Virus record (IMG/VR): IMGVR_UViG_2657244940_000004 | Length of the DNA: 7,569 nt | Source: a virus | Taxonomy: Duplodnaviria > Heunggongvirae > Uroviricota > Caudoviricetes | Direction: 5' to 3' (one strand) | Shown: positions 1-7,569 of the stretch, in pieces | Position numbering within the stretch: the stretch's first letter is position 1 | Layout: each line of letters opens with the position of its first letter | The notes under the pieces: model-generated | Databases searched by the model: none | Seen by the model: the letters and a program-made list of their open reading frames with translations, nothing else | Told to the model about the DNA's origin: nothing | Position numbers and translations under genes: made by a program

Positions 1-494
1 ATAAACATCCCGTAGGCATGGCCTGGTGACAGTGGAATAACTTTGAACATCTCTGTCGCCGGGATACCTTCCAGTACAGGCCAGAAAGAGCCATCATCAA
101 GCCCGAGATCGCGACGTTCGGTTGCCAGCATAATGAGATCGGCATATTTCACAGGCGTGCTCATAACAGGAGGTAACCCGTATTTCTCACGGATTACGGC
201 GTCTATTTTTTCTTCCATCCGTTTATAGTCAGGAAGAAGGCGTTTCAGTGGAGCTGGGATGTCCTGGCAATACGCTTCTGTTGCATCATGCATTAACGCT
301 TCAAAAGCAAATTCCTGCGGTACCAGCTGGCTGCAAAGCACCGCATGTTGGGCGACGCTGTAGAAGTGTGAAAGATGTCCTGCAAAGCGACAGATATTTG
401 AAAGGGAAACCGCGATATCGTTAATCACGATGTCGTCTTTATTTATCCTGTCATAATAAAAATGCTTCCCGGAAAAAGTTTTAATAAATGACAT
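1..494 (-). CDS. yfdR: HD-domain phosphohydrolase, YfdR-like (5'-deoxynucleotidase family); C-terminus lies outside the window
   Basis: Minus-strand translation from ATG (complement of 492-494) reads MSFIKTFSGKHFYYDRINKDDIVINDIAVSLSNICRFAGHLSHFYSVAQHAVLCSQLVPQEFAFEALMHDATEAYCQDIP... with no stop to position 1 (164 codons). It carries the H...HD metal-binding signature (GHLSH, LMHDATEAY) of the HD superfamily. GGAG lies 8 nt upstream of the ATG (rc of 503-506). Not in the ORF track because it runs off the edge. Symbol is from recall of the E. coli CPS-53 prophage protein, not a search. Confidence 0.8.
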   Translation of the reverse strand, partial: MSFIKTFSGKHFYYDRINKDDIVINDIAVSLSNICRFAGHLSHFYSVAQHAVLCSQLVPQEFAFEALMHDATEAYCQDIPAPLKRLLPDYKRMEEKIDAVIREKYGLPPVMSTPVKYADLIMLATERRDLGLDDGSFWPVLEGIPATEMFKVIPLSPGHAYGMF

Positions 495-588
495 TTTGTT
501 CTCCACTTTATATGCGCTGCACCGCGCTGAATTTTGGTTAAAGAAAACCCTCGCCATCAGGCGATTATTGAGTCAATTATGTTTCCAT

Positions 589-610
589 AAATGCCCCCGC
601 AGGGGCATTT
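589..610 (-). terminator. Perfect 9-bp stem hairpin (AAATGCCCC-CGCA-GGGGCATTT) between the yfdQ-like stop and the yfdR-like start; possible intrinsic terminator or attenuator
   Basis: Perfect inverted repeat 589-597 / 602-610 with a 4-nt loop, 13 nt downstream of the yfdQ-like stop on the minus strand. The following minus-strand sequence is only moderately U-rich (AUUUAUGGAAACAUAAUU), so this is not a canonical terminator. Confidence 0.35.
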
Positions 611-622
611 GCAGTAATGAAA

Positions 623-1447
623 TCAGGCGGTGAAAGTACCAATAAAGGTTTCTACTTTGCTGTCTTTAAATTTCTCAACAAGCAGATCACGAAATTCGTT
701 AGCCATTTCTTCCTGCACTGCTTCCAGCTGAATAATGCGCAGAACCAGTACAGGACGATCGCCAGTGATAATGCTGAGGCGTAATTTAAACGGACGTTCT
801 TTCAGGCCTTCAAACGGAACGCATTTAAATTCAAATACCACTGGCATAATGTCTTTGGTCTTCGCTTCGACAGACTCCATCAGGGAGCGTTTGCCGCTGA
901 AGTCATTATCTTCAAAATCAGCGGTCTGGTTTGCTTCAATCGTGATTTTACGGACTGCCGCAGCCGCTTTTGTTGCCTTAATAGCGTCACCATTAGCATC
1001 AAAGCCCACAAGATAGTCGGCCCAGTCTTCAATCCATTCTGCCAGTGACTTCTGGGAGTTACGCTCGCCGTTAACAGACAACAGAGCAGAGAACGGTGCT
1101 GTCTTTTTCAGTTTGAGTGTGGCGGTGTTATCTGCGTGACCTGGTTCACCAATAGTACCCAGGTTAAGCACACTGACGGCACGCATATTATCGGCATCGA
1201 TAAAGCAGCGGGTGCCTTCATCTGCAAGATCTTTAGAATAACGGGTAAAGTCATCGATGCTGGCAGTGGAAAGCGCACCACGGAAACGGAAGCGATTTAA
1301 ATTAAATTTTTCCAGATCATGAATGCGGAAATTCTCAGGCAATGCCACAGCATCGGCACCAATCTTACTGATAATTTCATTAACACCCTGAGCAGAAATA
1401 AGGGCATGGATTTGATTAATTGCGGTTGCGTCTAAGTTCTGAGACAT
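623..1447 (-). CDS. yfdQ: YfdQ-like prophage protein (DUF2303-type), 274 aa, function unknown
   Basis: 274-aa ORF with protein-like composition. GAGGA sits 6 nt upstream of the ATG (rc of 1448-1465). Length and N-terminus match my recollection of the E. coli CPS-53 YfdQ family. Sits between the yfdP-like and yfdR-like genes on the same strand. Confidence 0.85.
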
Positions 1448-1512
1448 AATAAGTCCTCACTATATTAAGATATTCAGTGATGAGATAAATAATCAGTTAA
1501 TTAAGAACGATA

Positions 1513-1875
1513 TTAATGACCTGCTGCGCGGAGTTTTCCGTCAGGTTCACCGGCAAGAGTCAGTAATTGTCCCTGGTCTTCCTGCAGAATAGTCAGGCGA
1601 CCACCTCGATTGACATACATCGGCGTTTCGGTGGTGTCTTCTTCGGAAATTTTCCCGCGGTTAGTCGGGCGAACATATGAGAGTTTGTGTTTGATTTTCA
1701 CACGGTTCTCATCAAACGGTTCGATGTCCAGATTGACCGAGACTTTACCTTTGTTTTTCGTGTTCATCACACCGGAAGCGACTTCACTGAGAACTGCGCC
1801 GAGTTTGGTTTCAAATACGCCGCCGTCCAGTTCTACGATAAATACCTGCACATCAGTACTGCGTACGCTAGCCAT
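1513..1875 (-). CDS. yfdP: YfdP-like small prophage protein, 120 aa; first gene of the leftward early operon
   Basis: The ORF track gives a 182-aa frame (1513..2061), but the N-terminal 62 codons are Cys/His/Arg-rich with no ribosome-binding site. The internal ATG at complement of 1873-1875 (MASVRSTDVQVFIVELDGG...) is preceded by GAGGAG 7-8 nt upstream (rc of 1879-1890) and gives a 120-aa product of normal composition. Confidence 0.7.
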   Translation of the reverse strand: MASVRSTDVQVFIVELDGGVFETKLGAVLSEVASGVMNTKNKGKVSVNLDIEPFDENRVKIKHKLSYVRPTNRGKISEEDTTETPMYVNRGGRLTILQEDQGQLLTLAGEPDGKLRAAGH

Positions 1876-2216
1876 TTTGCTGCTCCTCATCATATCGACC
1901 CTGCAAGGTCGGTTGGTTTCTCCACAAAACAGAGAAGAACACCTGCGGTGGCAGCCGCCCGGATGGATTGGGTTATGAGCCCGTCGTCCGGTGATGCTCT
2001 TCTCTGTTTTGTAAAAAGAGCGGTACCAGCCGGAAGCAAGTGTACAAACTGGTACCGCCAAAGCAGTGGCTGTTGTGGTGACCGGTGCTGATCTCCGGCT
2101 TGCGGTTATTTCAGACTCTCACGGGCGTTTAATTGCCCCGCCGAGCAGCTATTTTCCGCAATAGCTGCAATGTCTTTCGCGCATCAGCCTGCGCATTCAC
2201 CACAACTCTAAAAACA

Positions 2217-2269
2217 AATGTAGGATATCCAACATGTGAGTGTCAAGAGTTTATGTTGGTTATCCTACA
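2217..2269 (-). promoter_or_regulatory. PL-like leftward early promoter with OL-like operators
   Basis: Minus strand: -35 TTGACA (rc of 2241-2246), 18-nt spacer, -10 TACATT (rc of 2217-2222). 16-bp imperfect palindromes TGTAGGATATCCAACA (2219-2234, overlapping the -10) and TGTTGGTTATCCTACA (2254-2269, upstream of the -35). The 30-nt promoter core matches the PR core at 3021-3050 at 27 of 30 positions. Confidence 0.6.
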
Positions 2270-2286
2270 TAAAAAGATAGGCTCAT

Positions 2287-2312
2287 AAAAAAACCGGGGA
2301 TACCCCGGTTTT
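2287..2312 (-). terminator. Intrinsic terminator downstream of the repressor gene (analogous to lambda tIMM); flanked by A- and T-runs so possibly bidirectional
   Basis: GC-rich hairpin CCGGGG-ATA-CCCCGG (2294-2308) flanked by AAAAAAA (2287-2293) and TTTT (2309-2312). On the minus strand it reads CCGGGGUAUCCCCGG followed by UUUUUUU, about 20 nt past the repressor stop (2333). Confidence 0.6.
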
Positions 2313-2332
2313 GCGATAGTGAGGAAGATGTG

Positions 2333-2986
2333 TCAAAAATCCATTATTACTTGTTTGACAAGACCAACTATTCTGCAGTTCTCACCGCATTCAATAGTTT
2401 TATAGTTAGGATTTAGTGGGACGAGATACCTGTTCGGCCAGTCCTCAACAAATTTTTTGAGTGTCGCTTCTTGCCCACCATTGATATGGGCAACAACGAT
2501 TTTTCCGTTAATACACTCTGTATCAATAATATCTGGCTCTACGATAACGATAGAACCTTCTGGTATCGATGGTGAGCCGAGGGGATTGGTCATTGAATCA
2601 CCACGGACCCGTAGTGCAAATGCCATTTCTGATACAAGGGCGGTAGTATAAACCCACTCTTCAGCATCTTCTTTCCTGACACCAGGCTCCGTCATTGTCC
2701 ATGAACCCGCCTGAACCCACGAGATGAGGGGGACTTTTTTAACTGCGAATATTTCAGGTTTTAGATTTATCTTTGGTTCAGGCGAGCCTTTTCCGCTAAC
2801 AAGCCACAGAGGATCGCATTTAAGTGCGTTGGCTAGGGCTTGAAGGTTGGCTCCATTTGGTTGGTAGTCGTCCTTTTCCCATCCAGTAACCGTGACACGG
2901 TTCACACCAGTCAAATCAGCCAGTGCTTGTTGTGTCAGGTTCAGTTCTTTTCGCCTTTGGCGAATACGATCACTCATGTTCATCAT
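2333..2986 (-). CDS. cI: Prophage repressor, P22 c2 / lambda cI-like (N-terminal HTH_XRE plus C-terminal S24 LexA-type autopeptidase)
   Basis: N-terminal HTH (DRIRQRRKELNLTQQALADLTGVNRVTVTGWE). Ala-Gly cleavage motif VQAG in PLISWVQAGSW (lambda cI HVQAGMF, P22 c2 ISWVSAGQW). Catalytic Ser in RVRGDSM and Lys in GQEATLKKF. Aligns along its length with recalled P22 c2. Start chosen at the ATG of MMNMSDRIR (rc of 2984-2986), which has AGGA 8 nt upstream; the track's earlier ATG at 3010 would overlap the predicted PRM -10 and has no SD. Confidence 0.9.
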   Translation of the reverse strand: MMNMSDRIRQRRKELNLTQQALADLTGVNRVTVTGWEKDDYQPNGANLQALANALKCDPLWLVSGKGSPEPKINLKPEIFAVKKVPLISWVQAGSWTMTEPGVRKEDAEEWVYTTALVSEMAFALRVRGDSMTNPLGSPSIPEGSIVIVEPDIIDTECINGKIVVAHINGGQEATLKKFVEDWPNRYLVPLNPNYKTIECGENCRIVGLVKQVIMDF

Positions 2987-3050
2987 GTAGGCAATCCTAC
3001 CACATGCCAATGTAGGATTCTTGACATTGGCATGTTGGATATCCTACATT
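2986..3050. promoter_or_regulatory. OR-like tripartite operator with divergent PR (rightward, cro) and PRM (leftward, repressor)
   Basis: Three sites about 22-25 bp apart centre to centre: TGTAGGCAATCCTACC (2986-3001, overlapping the repressor SD and start), TGTAGGATTCTTGACA (3011-3026, half-site-like, contains the PR -35) and TGTTGGATATCCTACA (3033-3048, exact reverse complement of the OL site at 2219-2234, overlapping the PR -10). PR: -35 TTGACA 3021-3026, 18-nt spacer, -10 TACATT 3045-3050. Putative PRM on the minus strand: -10 TACATT (rc of 3009-3014) with a poor -35, as expected for an activator-dependent maintenance promoter. Confidence 0.65.
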
Positions 3051-3081
3051 TCTGCTTAACGTAATTTAACGGGAGACAGAA

Positions 3082-3279
3082 ATGCGGAAATCCGACGTGA
3101 TTAATTATTTCGGCGGAGTTTGTAAAACCGCCGAAGCCCTAGGTATTAAGCATCCGTCTGTTTCAGAGTGGCCTGAGATTATTCCTGAAGGCCGAGCGTA
3201 CCAGTTAGAAAAAATTACTAACGGGAAACTGAAAGTTGACGTGTCTTTATATCAAAAGACTAACAGTGCTGCGGCATAA
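3082..3279 (+). CDS. cro: Cro-like repressor, P22 Cro family (65 aa)
   Basis: MRKSDVINYFGGVCKTAEALGIKHPSVSEWPEIIPEGRAYQLEKITNGKLKV aligns with recalled P22 Cro (MYKKDVIDHFGTQRAVAKALGISDAAVSQWKEVIPEKDAYRLEIVTAGALKY). GGGAG sits 6 nt upstream of the ATG. The gene is divergent from the repressor and immediately downstream of PR. Confidence 0.85.
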   Translation: MRKSDVINYFGGVCKTAEALGIKHPSVSEWPEIIPEGRAYQLEKITNGKLKVDVSLYQKTNSAAA

Positions 3280-3306
3280 AAACACCACAGAAATGAGGAA
3301 TTAACC

Positions 3307-3885
3307 GTGGGTAAAGAACCTGAATGGAAAGTTGATAAACAACCAGCATGGCTGGTGGCAGCAATACGAAGAACGATTGCTGATTTACCTCATGGCTATG
3401 AGGAAGCAGCAGAAATTCTTGGTTTGTATAAATCTGATGATATCACCCCAGCAAAAGATCAATTGCATAACAGACTGCGTAGCGGTGGGGATCAAATTTT
3501 TCCACTTGAGTGGGCCATGGTTTTACAGGATGCCAGTGGTACCAGGCATGTAACAGATGCAATAGCCCGTCGTAGTAATGGGGTGTTTGTGCCGCTGGTG
3601 GTCATTGATGACATTGACAATGGTGACATTAATCAGCGGCTGATGGAGTCAATAGAATGGATTGGCAAGCATTCCCAGTACTTACGCAAGGCAACTGCTG
3701 ATGGAGTTATTGACCAAGCTGAACGCGAGCAGATCGAAGAGAACAGCTACCAAGTAATGGCGAAGTGGCAGGAGCATTTGACACTGTTATTTCGTGTTTT
3801 TTGTGCGCCGGAAAAGAGTAACGCCCGCGAGTGTGCAGCTCCGGGCGCCGTGGCGTGTCGTGACTGTGGAGAAACTAACGCATGA
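3307..3885 (+). CDS. Hypothetical early-right protein (192 aa); by position it could be a cII-type lysogeny regulator, unverified
   Basis: GTG start with GAGGA 8 nt upstream. Protein-like composition with acidic patches and a Cys-containing C-terminal tail (CAAPGAVACRDCGETNA). The stop overlaps the next ATG (ATGA at 3882-3885). I do not recognise a family from memory. Confidence 0.65.
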   Translation: MGKEPEWKVDKQPAWLVAAIRRTIADLPHGYEEAAEILGLYKSDDITPAKDQLHNRLRSGGDQIFPLEWAMVLQDASGTRHVTDAIARRSNGVFVPLVVIDDIDNGDINQRLMESIEWIGKHSQYLRKATADGVIDQAEREQIEENSYQVMAKWQEHLTLLFRVFCAPEKSNARECAAPGAVACRDCGETNA

Positions 3886-4484
3886 ACAGTTTAACGGCAA
3901 ATAACCGTTTGTCGCAACAGCTGGTGGTCAGTGTCGCTGCACACCTGTTGTTACGGCATGAATGCAGATTACCAAATCACCTGGCTGTAAGTAACCACAG
4001 AGAACTTTACCTGACTGTGGGGGGCGAGTTGTGCAGGAACTTAACCGCTGGTTTCGTGACGGAAGAGGACTTTATGTTCATGTTATTCGTTGGGAGCCAG
4101 AAACACAGCGCGTTATCTATCTTCGCAAAGACTACCAGCATGAGTGCTTTAGTCCTTTGTGGAAATTCAGGCGTGATTTTGTTGAGTGTGAAGGACCACC
4201 AGCATATTGATTCTGCAATTCCGGGACGTTACACTGCTCAGGCACCTTATAAAGCGGGTGCCGGGGGTCGCAGCCCGGAATTGTCAACGGCGATATATGA
4301 CGCGCCAGCGTCTTTTTTATCGTCCGCGCTCACGCACGCCAGAATTATGGTGGGCTGGGCAGGGGAGCCGAAAGGCTCGCCGGTCTCCGTTGACGCCGGT
4401 ACTGCGAACCCTGTTCAGTCTGCCACCAGTGAGTTTCGCAGCTCCGGTGGTGGAAGTTTTCCACAGTCAACGGAGGCTGCCATC

Positions 4485-5030
4485 ATGGCTACGATCCCAA
4501 CCCTCACTCAACCTGAAATTGCCATCGTTGATGGTCAGGCTGTTACTTCATCCCTGGCTGTTGCCAACTTCTTCTCCAAACGTCATGACGATGTACTGAA
4601 AAAGATCCGCACGCTTGAATGCTCTGCATCATTCACTTCCCGCAATTTTTCGGTGAGTGATTACACCGATTGCACAGGCCGCAAACTACCTTGCTATCAA
4701 ATAACCCGCGACGGCTTTGCGTTTCTTGCTATGGGTTTCACGGGTAAACGTGCTGCCCAGTTCAAAGAGGCATACATCAATGCCTTTAACCAGATGGAGA
4801 AACAGCTTTCAAATCCCTCTGTACTGAGCGACGTTGCACATAACGCCAGCGTTCTCTATTCCTACATTTCATCAATTCATCAGGTCTGGCTGCAGCAGCT
4901 TTATCCCATGTTGGCAAAAGCCGAATCCCCGCTGGCTGTAAGTCTGTATGACCGCATCAACGACGCGGCGCTACTGGCCAGTCTCATAAATTTGTCGCTG
5001 AACCCTTCAGAGGTAAGGGGGCGCAAATGA
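4485..5030 (+). CDS. rha: Rha-family phage regulatory protein (pRha domain), 181 aa from an internal start; the same frame is open upstream to 3882
   Basis: MATIPTLTQPEIAIVDGQAVTSSLAVANFFSKRHDDVLKKIRTLECSASF...YQITRDGFAFLAMGFTGKRAAQFKEAYINAFNQMEKQL matches the Rha signature (VTSS..VA..F.KRH..VL..I, TRDGF..L.MGFTGK.A..FKEAYI..FN.ME) recalled for this family. GGAGG sits 8 nt upstream of the ATG at 4485. The track ORF (3882..5030, 382 aa) would add 201 N-terminal codons of atypical composition. Confidence 0.85.
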   Translation: MATIPTLTQPEIAIVDGQAVTSSLAVANFFSKRHDDVLKKIRTLECSASFTSRNFSVSDYTDCTGRKLPCYQITRDGFAFLAMGFTGKRAAQFKEAYINAFNQMEKQLSNPSVLSDVAHNASVLYSYISSIHQVWLQQLYPMLAKAESPLAVSLYDRINDAALLASLINLSLNPSEVRGRK

Positions 5031-5251
5031 TCCGGAATATTTTCAAACGGTTTACCAATCATACTTTCCGTTGTCCTCGTCCGGGTCAGTGGTACACCAC
5101 GCCTGCAGGGCATGTTCTACGTGTTAGCCTGGTTGACCGTGAATGTCAGAAGGTGGTTTGTGAACCGCTGGGCCGTAATTACCGCGTCAGTATGCCGCTT
5201 ATAGCCTTTTGCTCCGGAAAAATGTTTAAGCGTCTGGGAGGTGTGGCGTGA
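5027..5251 (+). CDS. Small hypothetical protein (74 aa), start overlapping the rha stop
   Basis: The ATG at 5027-5029 overlaps the rha stop TGA at 5028-5030. A G-rich SD-like run (AAGGGGG) lies about 6 nt upstream. The product contains several Cys (FRCPRPG, CQKVVCEP, FCSG). No family recognised. Confidence 0.45.
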   Translation: MIRNIFKRFTNHTFRCPRPGQWYTTPAGHVLRVSLVDRECQKVVCEPLGRNYRVSMPLIAFCSGKMFKRLGGVA

Positions 5252-5472
5252 ACTGTTTTCAGGTTCGGTCATGAAAAAGTAACATATTCTATGCTGGAAC
5301 AGACCAATTTTGCATTCGCCGTCCAGGAGTTTGAGGGGAAAGTAGTCAGTGTTTACGCTCAGTCAGGGAAAGTGTGCAATGATAAACAACACGAAAGGAA
5401 TCGTAGTACATGGGCACCGCGATTCAATATTCAAGGAAAACACAATACAGCAATGTACTTGTACTGTTTCTA

Positions 5473-5754
5473 TTATTCTGGCGATTTCAATAAAGGCACT
5501 TGCTCGCGCTCTGTCATTTTCTGAAACTCTTCATGCTGCATTTCGATTTTCCTTCTAAGATCATAACTCGCATACCTGTTCTTTTTATGTATATCTATAT
5601 CTATTTTTGTGACGAGTTCAAACCACAATGTTCGCACTCCCCAGGCAGCGTTATGAAACATTTCCGCAACGGCTATAGAGTCTGTATTAACTGCTTCGGT
5701 CATGTAGTCGCTAATACGTTCAGCGGTAATTTTCGTTATTTCATCGTAATTCAT
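5473..5754 (-). CDS. Hypothetical protein (93 aa) in a low-GC segment; orphan cargo gene
   Basis: GGAGA sits 5 nt upstream of the ATG (rc of 5755-5770: GTAGGAGATAAA-ATG). Product has balanced composition ([47 protein letters not shown]...). The surrounding 5500-5860 is visibly AT-rich compared with the window. A 105-bp AT-rich gap separates it from the upstream toxin gene. Confidence 0.6.
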
Positions 5755-5859
5755 TTTATCTCCTACAAGATTATTTAATGGAATGAAAAATATCTGGCCT
5801 GATAATAATATTCCAGAATTAATATCTGCAGGCTATGTTAAGTTGTCCCCACACACAAT

Positions 5860-6135
5860 CTACCTGTTTTCTCGTGTGTGCCACAGGCGCAATACATAAA
5901 TAGTCTGGCCATTAAGTTCGTAACGGATTTCGTACTCGCCAGCAAAAATCCGTCTGACCTCCCTGGGTTCAAACTGAAACAACTGTTCTCCCATACGTGG
6001 ATGAGTTAACAGAATGACCGGTGCCTGTGTCAGGGATTGCACCGTTCTGGCGGCCGCAGGTTTACTGGCCAGCACCAGAAAATCATATAACCGCGCCAAA
6101 TCAGAAAGCGCCTTACTGGTCCACTTCAGTTCCAT
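5860..6135 (-). CDS. Type II toxin, ParE/RelE superfamily (91 aa)
   Basis: MELKWTSKALSDLARLYDFL...GEYEIRYELNGQTIYVLRLWHTRE follows the ParE/RelE fold pattern (N-terminal helices, C-terminal Y.I.Y......I.RV.H.R). Its ATG overlaps the stop of the upstream RHH gene (TGATG on the minus strand at 6133-6137). Confidence 0.85.
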   Translation of the reverse strand: MELKWTSKALSDLARLYDFLVLASKPAAARTVQSLTQAPVILLTHPRMGEQLFQFEPREVRRIFAGEYEIRYELNGQTIYVLRLWHTRENR

Positions 6136-6419
6136 CAGCGTGGCACCGGTAACGGATTGTCAGTACTGAGGCTGTCCGCCCAGGCCTGTACAGCCTGATG
6201 GTCGATAACCTGTCCGGATGTCACATCGTCCAGGGCTTCCAGCGTCAGGCGATTACGCTCCTCCTCCTGGGCAAGCCATGCAGAAAGCGCCTGTTTGATA
6301 ACCCAGCCCCGGGAGCGTTCCAGCCTGGCGGCCATCTGGTCGACTTTATCAGCCATAGGTAATGGCACATGCGCGGTAATGACTTTTGTTGCTTGTGCGG
6401 TATTGTTTTTCATTTGCAT
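6135..6419 (-). CDS. Type II antitoxin, ribbon-helix-helix (CopG/ParD-like), 94 aa
   Basis: Ribbon-helix-helix signature in VITAHVPLPMADKVDQMAARLERSRGWVIKQALSAWL, followed by an acidic C-terminal region typical of toxin-neutralising tails. Sits upstream of and overlapping the toxin. An alternative start at the third codon (ATG rc of 6411-6413) is possible. Confidence 0.8.
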   Translation of the reverse strand: MQMKNNTAQATKVITAHVPLPMADKVDQMAARLERSRGWVIKQALSAWLAQEEERNRLTLEALDDVTSGQVIDHQAVQAWADSLSTDNPLPVPR

Positions 6420-6432
6420 ATCCGATTAGTCG

Positions 6433-6474
6433 TTAATCATATTTAATCATAGTGATTACTTTCAGACGGAACAA
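6433..6474 (-). promoter_or_regulatory. Putative promoter and autoregulatory operator of the toxin-antitoxin operon
   Basis: Minus strand: -35 TTGTTC (rc of 6469-6474), 17-nt spacer, -10 TATGAT (rc of 6446-6451). A second TATGAT lies 10 bp downstream (rc of 6436-6441), forming a direct repeat TGATTAAATATGATTAA over the -10 region, the sort of site an RHH antitoxin would bind. Confidence 0.35.
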
Positions 6475-7321
6475 GGCAAATAATGCGCGTCAGCGCATGT
6501 AAGGCGGCATACGGTGGTTACATGTAGCACAGGTGTGAAACCGCCGAAGCCCGGCGTAAGCCGGTACATATTGATAGATTTCACCTTACCCATCCCCAGC
6601 CCTGCTAAGCCATACCCGCTTTCAGCCATGACAGAGCTTCTGTGCGCGGTCGGAGTGGTCCCGACGAGGGTTTACCCGAAGTCGGGGCGTATCTCCGCGT
6701 TAGCGGGCCGTCAGGGCCGCTTACGAGCGTGTACTCGATACGTCCAGCCAGAAGACTGGCAGCGATGACAATGTAGTTACAACATTCATAATTAAAAGCG
6801 ATGTTGTTCCCGCCCTTTGGGCGGGGGCGGCCTCGCTTTTCAGTTATGAGGGGTGGGCACGGTGCTGCGTTTGTGTGGTGTTTTTATTCCTGATGTCTTT
6901 TTGCTGTGGTTTCAGAACGGTGAGGTTCGGGGCCCGCGCGTCAGCGTGGGAGGTGCATATCAGTCTGTCCACAGGACAGGCATTGAACAGGTTTTCTTTT
7001 TAAATGGAAGTAATTAAGTAGTTTAAAGGAAATACAGTACTGGAGTTTAAAAGAAACATTGCACCCTGTAACGCCTGCGGCTGGCGCTTTATAGCATTAA
7101 CGGTTGTAACCTTATGGAGAAGTCCCTTGCAGTTAAATGTGGATAAACAGAATTACCCGTCTGTGAGACGTGTTTTGCGTGAAAAACAGGGGGAGCATGA
7201 TGAGCCGGAAGGCAGATGATGAGGCTGTTTTTTGTGTGCTGTGCTGCTTTTTTGTGCGTCGCCGGGCTTCAGACGTGCGGAAGCCTCCGGCGCAGGCCGG
7301 ATTATTCAGATGAGGTCAAAC

Positions 7322-7569
7322 TCAGGGTGAGGCAGTGGCCAGCCGTGTGTAGTTGTTGTTCCGCGACATTATCATTCGTTCCTTCACGCGACGGTCGATT
7401 TCGCGCTTCACGGCCTCCAGGCTTCCGCGGAAACGCCCTTCCGCGATTTCACGTGTCAGCTGCCGTTTCACCAGGGTGACAATGTCCTGACGGGTCCTGC
7501 CTGCATCGCGGCGCGCACGGGCACGTTTCATGCCGTGGGACTTAAGCTCTGCCTGATAACTGCGGAAAC
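7322..7569 (-). CDS. Basic protein of unknown function, partial; frame open to the window edge, N-terminus may lie outside
   Basis: Minus-strand frame is open from the window edge to the stop at 7322 (...FRSYQAELKSHGMKRARARRDAGRTRQDIVTLVKRQLTREIAEGRFRGSLEAVKREIDRRVKERMIMSRNNNYTRLATASP). The internal Met at 7531 has no SD. Arg/Lys-rich and helical-looking, suggesting nucleic-acid binding. A 5-bp hairpin (7287-7300) follows the stop. No family recognised. Confidence 0.45.
   Translation of the reverse strand, partial: FRSYQAELKSHGMKRARARRDAGRTRQDIVTLVKRQLTREIAEGRFRGSLEAVKREIDRRVKERMIMSRNNNYTRLATASP

Follow-up and report, generated by a model that had tools for sequence, protein, structure and literature searches.

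The stretch of DNA analysed in this study (IMG/VR record IMGVR_UViG_2657244940_000004; 7,569 nucleotides, hereafter the window) is a mosaic of a lambdoid-prophage part and a plasmid-backbone part. The plasmid part carries on its minus strand, in this order, the 3' end of repA, the origin region, a ribbon-helix-helix (RHH) antitoxin gene, a ParE-family toxin gene and, behind a 105-bp gap, an open reading frame (ORF) of 93 amino acids (aa), which is the subject of this work (Table 1). An original prediction, made from the sequence alone, had described the segment 5500-5860 as markedly AT-rich, had correctly placed the 93-aa gene downstream of the toxin on the same strand, and had proposed that it is a separately acquired cargo gene and possibly a third functional partner of the toxin-antitoxin (TA) pair. 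The feature is of an ordinary kind: a plasmid backbone carries a small accessory gene as a passenger, and the family of this gene is undescribed and extremely common. Sequence comparisons identify it as a real, selected and self-contained gene and probably not as a TA component, which clarifies the annotation of a locus at which RefSeq lists an intact copy as a pseudogene.

Evidence that the 93-aa ORF is a selected gene

The ORF encodes a protein of 11.1 kDa with an isoelectric point of 5.4 and zero cysteines, and its ATG is preceded at 5 nt by an AGGAG ribosome-binding site, the good Shine-Dalgarno sequence noted by the original prediction. The ratio of nonsynonymous to synonymous substitution rates (dN/dS) was 0.25, 0.13 and 0.13 in comparisons with DNA homologs at 65%, 68% and 92% protein identity. 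Across the compared homologs, the differences at the three codon positions (22/17/38, 18/14/40 and 4/3/12) are concentrated at third positions, and in the distant pairs synonymous change has almost reached saturation (dS 1.0-1.7). The antisense 92-aa ORF (5500-5778, plus strand) was rejected as a real gene, as stop codons interrupt the homologs' copies. Homologs as distant as ~60% identity, from Salmonella, Citrobacter, Dickeya and E. coli, retain the length of 93 aa. Because of the low dN/dS, the third-position bias, the broken antisense ORF, the kept length and a confidently predicted fold (see below), the 93-aa ORF is, as judged by its evolution, a real gene under purifying selection.

The gene belongs to an undescribed family found mainly on Enterobacterales plasmids. 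In agreement with the original prediction, which saw no recognisable family, the protein matched none at E <= 0.1 in Pfam-A, NCBIfam, PHROGs or PADLOC, the family profile had no match at E <= 10 among Protein Data Bank (PDB) sequences, and 25 diverse members had no library family in common. A search of 5.8 billion proteins yielded 202 homologs, many of exactly 93 aa. Profile searching of 1.84 billion representative proteins gave 77 matches, all full-length ones being stand-alone proteins of ~87-95 aa. A profile of the remote branch retrieved only 7 proteins. The exact 93-aa protein is present on at least 1,000 public contigs, where it is always labelled hypothetical. Homologs lie mostly on conjugative plasmids (1,845 of 2,576 PLSDB records). 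The protein is thus among the commonest unnamed genes on clinically important IncI/IncF resistance and virulence plasmids; with homologs on ~2,600 PLSDB plasmids, the family is yet without a name or literature.

RefSeq, through the Prokaryotic Genome Annotation Pipeline (PGAP), calls the counterpart on E. coli plasmid p86 (NZ_CP023387, positions 6252-6455, equivalent to 5551-5754 of the window) a pseudogene ('incomplete; missing C-terminus'). As the 93-codon ORF of p86 is intact and identical to that of the window, this call is an annotation artefact, and a pseudogene or truncated status was rejected. In many PLSDB records the gene is left unannotated. Damaged copies exist as well. The gene contains two slippage-prone tracts at 5582-5605, an A5 run (5582-5586, minus strand) and a (GATATA)2 repeat. 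A frameshift at the A5 run, after HKK, occurs in pSRC27-I and in a 79-aa Klebsiella/E. coli cluster, and pRK1 has an extra in-frame ID unit (IDIDID) derived from the GATATA repeat. The pO157 copy is cut after about codon 66, and ~11 codons are left beside IS1 in pINV.

Table 1. Features in and around the AT-rich segment of the window.
Feature	Position	Strand	Description and evidence
Prophage (1-5262)/plasmid (5257-7569) junction	5257..5262		imperfect 6-bp overlap TTTC[A/G]G
93-aa gene	5473..5754 (start 5754)	minus	uncharacterised protein, predicted three-helix bundle; NAAWG..LW core, C-terminal DR..VPLL tail
AT-rich run TATGTATATCTATATCTATTTTTGT	5586..5610	minus	quoted in the original prediction; coding, TKIDIDIH; contains the (GATATA)2 repeat
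Intergenic gap	5755..5859	minus	105 bp, GC 0.314, holds AGGAG at 5764-5760; composition and promoter/terminator scan
ParE/RelE-family toxin gene	5860..6135	minus	91 aa, 'yacB' type of Shigella pINV/pO157; PF05016, E=7.7e-17
RHH (CopG/ParD-like) antitoxin gene	6135..6419	minus	94 aa; PF01402, E=1.2e-10; 1-nt overlap with toxin start (6135)

The low GC content is a property of the family

The G+C content (GC) of 5500-5860 is 0.371 (37.1%), compared with 0.478 (47.8%) for the whole window, and 5467-5827 is the lowest-GC 361-bp window of the entire sequence (0.357). A GC as low as that of 5500-5860 is reached by only 1.5% of the 361-bp windows; however, three stretches of the prophage part (2195-2555, 359-719 and 1165-1525) have a GC of 0.38-0.40. 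The AT-richness of the segment is therefore real, yet not extreme, and 'markedly' was an overstatement; the AT-rich run that had been quoted is present, as coding sequence. The 93-aa ORF has a GC of 0.390 (0.404 at third codon positions), the ParE gene 0.496 and the antitoxin gene 0.558. The GC of the family gene (0.33-0.45) is lower than that of its own ±2-kb flanks in 13 of the 13 other loci examined, and GC at second codon positions is only 0.31 for the family. As the gene is AT-rich in all these loci, its low GC is intrinsic to the family and gives no evidence of recent acquisition here. The idea of a separately acquired cargo gene thus loses its compositional argument, but keeps its other half, the separability of the gene from the TA pair, described below. 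Rfam contained no RNA family in or near the segment and the 224 nt downstream of the gene folded no better than shuffled sequences (z = 0.04); an RNA element in or near the segment was rejected.

Predicted structure of the 93-aa protein

The structure prediction suggested as a check in the original prediction was run. An AlphaFold model based on a 41-sequence alignment (predicted local distance difference test, pLDDT, 95.6; predicted template modelling score, pTM, 0.84) is a confident three-helix bundle with helices at residues 3-23, 27-58 and 60-80 and a short C-terminal tail. Positions G39 and W44 are invariant across members down to ~25% identity. M1, T7, M18, A21, A30, A37, L43 and F77 are near-invariant, at core-like spacing, and both the NAAWG motif of helix 2 and a C-terminal [RQ]-x-[VI]-P-L-L-K tail are widely retained.

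The predicted fold is generic and uninformative on function. Its structural matches are long three-helix bundles such as designed proteins, domain I of the ribosome recycling factor, SNARE Habc domains and Legionella Lem22. The four-helix 'S23 ribosomal protein' family of Xcc0516/BT_0352 is matched too, but the model of the 93-aa protein has three helices. Top Foldseek matches to this 'S23 ribosomal protein / 23S rRNA IVS protein' family (PDB 2gsc and 2rld) were not significant (E = 0.41-2.8, template modelling score 0.5-0.6, 14-18% identity), and the protein did not match Pfam PF05635. A reading of the tail as a beta-clamp-binding motif (QVPLL resembling Q-hydrophobic-x-L-hydrophobic) was dropped, as R replaces Q in most members.

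The gene and the toxin-antitoxin pair are often found apart

Co-occurrence of the gene and the pair, another check suggested at the outset, was determined across PLSDB. A near-full-length 93-aa gene is carried by ~2,100 plasmids and the complete TA by 1,452 records, while TA and at least part of the gene are found together in at most 1,096 records. At least ~350 plasmids have the TA without the gene, and ~1,000 or more have the gene intact without a functional TA. In these PLSDB counts there is no obligate co-occurrence with toxin and antitoxin, the hallmark of a three-component type II TA system.

The same separation is seen in individual lineages. Distant plasmids (loci L002 and L003/L004 of our comparison) share nucleotide homology with the window over 5462-5763, i.e. 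the ORF only. In a very large R100-like IncF lineage (~92% identity, ~500 Klebsiella plasmids included), the homology spans 5459-6099, comprising the gene, the gap and a 5'-truncated parE, and there is no antitoxin. This parE stump has a 1-nt insertion and nonsense changes, whereas the gene, at equal nucleotide divergence, changes mostly synonymously (dN/dS 0.13). The gene adjoins parM/parR in this lineage, and this accounts for a stray UniRef name, 'Stability (Stb) locus of IncFII plasmid NR1'. On a ColV-type plasmid, the intact gene lies between the colicin immunity genes cvi and cbi, beside a parE reduced to a 65-nt stump. On an Apirhabdus apintestini plasmid (CP138907, 5621-5917), parE is frameshifted (98-aa product with an altered C-terminus) and the adjacent gene is intact; as read from the sequence, this is a further case of the passenger outliving the toxin. 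Conversely, pINV, pO157 and pO104_H7 have the TA with nothing, an insertion sequence (IS; IS1) or a truncated copy of the gene downstream, and in ColIb-P9 the slot behind the TA is occupied by a 3'-5' exonuclease gene (yacC) and yadA where the window has the 93-aa gene. Taken together, the ORF-only homology, the lineages with dead or stump parE, the unequal counts, the occurrence of the TA alone and the slot swap in ColIb-P9 indicate that the gene moves and persists independently of the adjacent RHH-ParE pair.

A 5-kb contig labelled Streptomyces morookaense (NZ_JABBXF010000140.1) was 92% identical to enterobacterial IncF DNA comprising the 93-aa gene and parMR. A CTX-M-like beta-lactamase is encoded on it as well, and the contig almost certainly contaminates the genome assembly to which it is assigned.

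Candidate source of expression

The gap between toxin and gene had been called promoter-like. Its length of exactly 105 bp and its AT-richness are as described, but scanning of 5755-5859 found neither a sigma-70 consensus promoter nor an intrinsic terminator, manual inspection revealed weak hexamers only, and a consensus promoter or terminator within the gap was rejected. The gap is 87.7% identical between the window and the IncF lineage, and the gene 93.3%. The sole promoter-like site in 5200-6520 is located at 6465-6436 on the minus strand, upstream of the antitoxin gene. As the gene has no recognisable promoter of its own and no terminator was recognised behind parE, read-through from parDE is the likeliest source of its expression. 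The gene is thus most likely, with moderate confidence, expressed as the distal cistron of an autoregulated parD-parE transcript.

A terminator-like hairpin at 6498-6483 (minus strand) precedes the promoter-like site ahead of the antitoxin gene, an arrangement that fits a parDE promoter which is self-contained and insulated, lying between the origin region and the TA.

Genomic contexts of the family

The family was found in 11 independent genomic contexts, and in five of these a type II TA module lies 0-2 genes upstream on the same strand, each time of an unrelated family. The module is adjacent in the window (RHH-ParE) and in L020 (Phd-like antitoxin with a PF05016 toxin), separated by one gene in L002 (Phd/YefM with a ParE-like toxin), and by two genes in L014/L016/L017 (HigB-HigA) and in L025 (MazE-PemK). 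The remaining contexts have no TA upstream on the same strand: a SprT-like gene is found there in L003, parA with a small RHH-like gene in L021, and small-gene arrays in L018, L023, L024 and L026. Since the toxins are unrelated by BLASTP, the TA cases represent independent juxtapositions and not one inherited synteny. Outside the window, nine of the ten contexts have 9-63 nt between the gene and a preceding same-strand gene, as called in the source assembly, and L024 has 119 nt; the same-strand spacing is tight in L020, L021, L016, L002, L018, L025 and L026. As far as gene order can tell, the recurrence of upstream TA modules in five of 11 contexts is suggestive of a looser link to TA or maintenance operons.

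A conserved partner gene was rejected, the upstream small genes of L002, L003 and L014 being unrelated. Several lineage-specific arrangements were observed. A downstream ORF with the motif NPAF..W..GEKLPRG, a possible partner, occurs only in the L014/L016 lineage and has no counterpart in the window. L014, a Citrobacter plasmid contig, carries two family paralogs ~1.5 kb apart (1212-1776 and 2791-3273), each followed by a small ORF with NPAF..W...GEKLPRG.[FY]F. In L016, from Salmonella (4001-4646), the downstream 119-aa gene overlaps the stop codon of the homolog by 14 nt, which suggests translational coupling. Between the L014 paralogs lies a 178-aa gene (2198-2734) whose product is 52% identical to that of ColIb-P9 yadA (L010, 3962-4417), so that genes of the yadA kind and of the 93-aa family have neighbourhoods in common across different plasmids. 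In two remote contexts that are unrelated, a 63-aa DUF7706 gene (PF24806) precedes the family member on the same strand, immediately upstream in L024 (3689-3880) and ~1.9 kb upstream in L018 (1843-2034).

A probable passenger gene with a possible role in protein binding

Our preferred interpretation, to which we assign a probability of roughly 0.6, is that the segment is home to an accessory plasmid gene that is autonomous and rides as a passenger behind a maintenance operon, and whose product is a small cytoplasmic, mildly acidic, three-helix-bundle protein that may act by protein binding. The gene would be a promoter-less passenger that tends to come to rest behind the last gene of maintenance operons on plasmids, and would be transcribed here by read-through from parD-parE. 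Its product would bind another protein, the rigid bundle presenting the C-terminal VPLL tail peptide with a contribution of the helix-2 motif, and the target would more likely be a host or incoming-element factor for plasmid establishment or maintenance than the neighbouring toxin. The mode of action is suggested by the conserved helix-core residues, the NAAWG motif and the tail, by the lack of enzyme-like or DNA-binding features, and by the generic fold of a stand-alone protein of ~90 aa; we propose binding through the conserved tail and NAAWG motif with low confidence only. The recurrence behind maintenance operons makes the gene a tractable target; if neutral, it is simply an ordinary passenger gene.

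Several observations weigh against this interpretation. The parD promoter is deleted in the IncF lineage, yet the gene is under purifying selection there, so that another source of transcription must serve it. A promoter of weak, non-consensus type may lie in the gap or within the 3' end of parE, of which at least 65 nt are kept in every rearranged copy seen. In addition, the gene is often damaged, by frameshifts at the A5 run and by IS insertions or deletions that truncate it, with many variants of 56-90 aa, and is therefore dispensable in many hosts. Finally, a purely independent passenger leaves the recurrence of upstream TA modules unaccounted for.

A more specific function, as a plasmid establishment or anti-defence factor that, once the plasmid has entered, neutralises a defence or stress-response protein of the host, is the version of the binding hypothesis that we find most attractive, though we hold it with low confidence and, taken as an explanation of its own, consider it rather unlikely. 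Small proteins of plasmid leading regions have been reported to act in establishment and anti-defence. The 93-aa protein is small, acidic and helical, its AT-rich gene is frequently gained and lost, and the family is confined to mobile elements, mostly conjugative plasmids, where it sits in arrays of small same-strand genes. Its neighbours include SprT-like proteins (L003 and L021), a dUTPase/Tad2-like protein and DUF7706 (L024 and L018). In the IncF context, a DNA methylase and an antirestriction gene are present within ~5 kb, the gene lying beside parMR at the distal edge of the methylase/antirestriction array. However, these neighbour associations are anecdotal, in library and structure searches the protein resembled no known anti-defence protein in sequence or fold, and in the IncI-type context the gene is replicon-proximal and oriented opposite to the neighbouring ProQ/FinO-side genes.

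That the 93-aa protein is a third TA component, as suggested by the original prediction, we consider improbable. In this reading it would modulate the toxin or antitoxin encoded upstream, for example by making neutralisation more effective or by adjusting activation. PasC, the third component of the pasABC addiction system of plasmid pTF-FC2, offers a precedent: this small plasmid-encoded protein, whose gene directly follows that of a RelE/ParE-type toxin, is reported to act with its TA, whereas the 93-aa gene widely persists without any TA. The position of the gene, on the same strand directly behind the toxin across a terminator-free gap, fits such a role, as do the TA modules found 0-2 genes upstream in other contexts, and the pINV yacAB locus, in which the 93-aa gene is destroyed by IS1, has been described as inactive (PMC9455713). 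The PLSDB counts do not bear this out, as the intact gene, under purifying selection, outnumbers its co-occurrences with a complete TA and each partner frequently lacks the other, and in the IncF lineage the gene is kept beside a dead parE. Moreover, six of the 11 contexts have no TA nearby, one or two genes intervene in three of the five that do, and the associated toxins belong to families with different cellular targets, MazF included.

A wider possibility is that the family is a broad-spectrum accessory factor of type II TA or maintenance operons, repeatedly recruited behind ParE, RelE/StbE-like, HigB and MazF modules and acting on something that these share, such as antitoxin turnover by host proteases or the response to toxin activation, or else a new anti-defence or establishment protein; either way the VPLL peptide would dock onto a host protein. 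We regard this as a long shot. The last alternative, that the AT-rich segment is a non-coding spacer or pseudogene remnant with a spurious or decaying ORF, draws on the PGAP flag and the many truncated or frameshifted variants, but with the p86 ORF whole, a dN/dS of 0.13-0.25 at saturated dS, a length conserved across genera and a confident structure prediction it has a negligible probability and is refuted by the selection analysis.

The neighbouring pair and the make-up of the window

As judged from domains and gene order, the pair upstream of the gene is a ParDE-kind type II module, with a PF05016 toxin and an RHH antitoxin encoded by overlapping genes on the same strand, antitoxin first. 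It corresponds to the yacA-yacB locus of IncI-complex and IncFII plasmids ('yacAB' of Shigella pINV; p69/p70 of pO157), with equal gene sizes and 96.7% nucleotide identity between the TA genes of the window and pINV. The position after repA and the origin region is common to the window, pRK1, p86 and pO157. The yacAB locus as described excludes the 93-aa gene, which is destroyed in pINV and truncated in pO157. The characterised ParDE^I (YacAB of ColIb-P9/pJIE512b) stabilises plasmids when cloned alone (Kamruzzaman & Iredell 2019, PMC6614396), so that such pairs can work as two-gene modules. Like the pair of the window, it pairs an RHH antitoxin with a ParE-family toxin and occupies the same plasmid slot behind repZ/ori; however, only 22/92 toxin and 17/94 antitoxin residues are identical (~24% and ~18%). 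The published ParDE^I primers have 0 mismatches on ColIb-P9 and no match on the window, and together with these identities this rules out that the TA of the window is ParDE^I. The name yacC was rejected for the 93-aa gene, as yacC of ColIb-P9/pS88 is another gene in that slot, encoding a 3'-5' exonuclease of ~283 aa.

The plasmid part of the window (5257-7569) shares 99% identity with the backbone of p86 and 96-97% with IncI-gamma/K plasmids such as pRK1. The segment 5300-6500 was found at 2,225 plasmid places versus only 25 chromosomal ones in complete E. coli genomes. Bases 1-5243 (up to 5262-5265 in the best matches) have 94-99% identity with the immunity region of E. coli lambdoid/Stx-type prophages, and encode YfdQ/DUF2303, a cI-like LexA-family repressor, Cro, a CII/YmfL-like protein, an Ash+Rha regulator and a 74-aa ORF. 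The two parts meet ~210 bp past the stop codon of the 93-aa gene, and the join cuts short a prophage gene, of which ~5 codons are left, and a plasmid gene of 88 aa. The junction was absent from the complete E. coli genomes, the species-representative genomes and the viral and metagenome contigs searched, and the junction-spanning ORF used as a query did not retrieve a second copy of the join either. Either a rare illegitimate recombination or chimeric assembly may have produced it. Within the prophage part, 3882-5030 is a single 382-aa ORF with an Ash domain (residues 117-212) followed by a Rha domain (222-307); in the close prophage relative KY204, the matching region carries annotations for a DUF4222 gene and, separately, for a shorter Rha gene.

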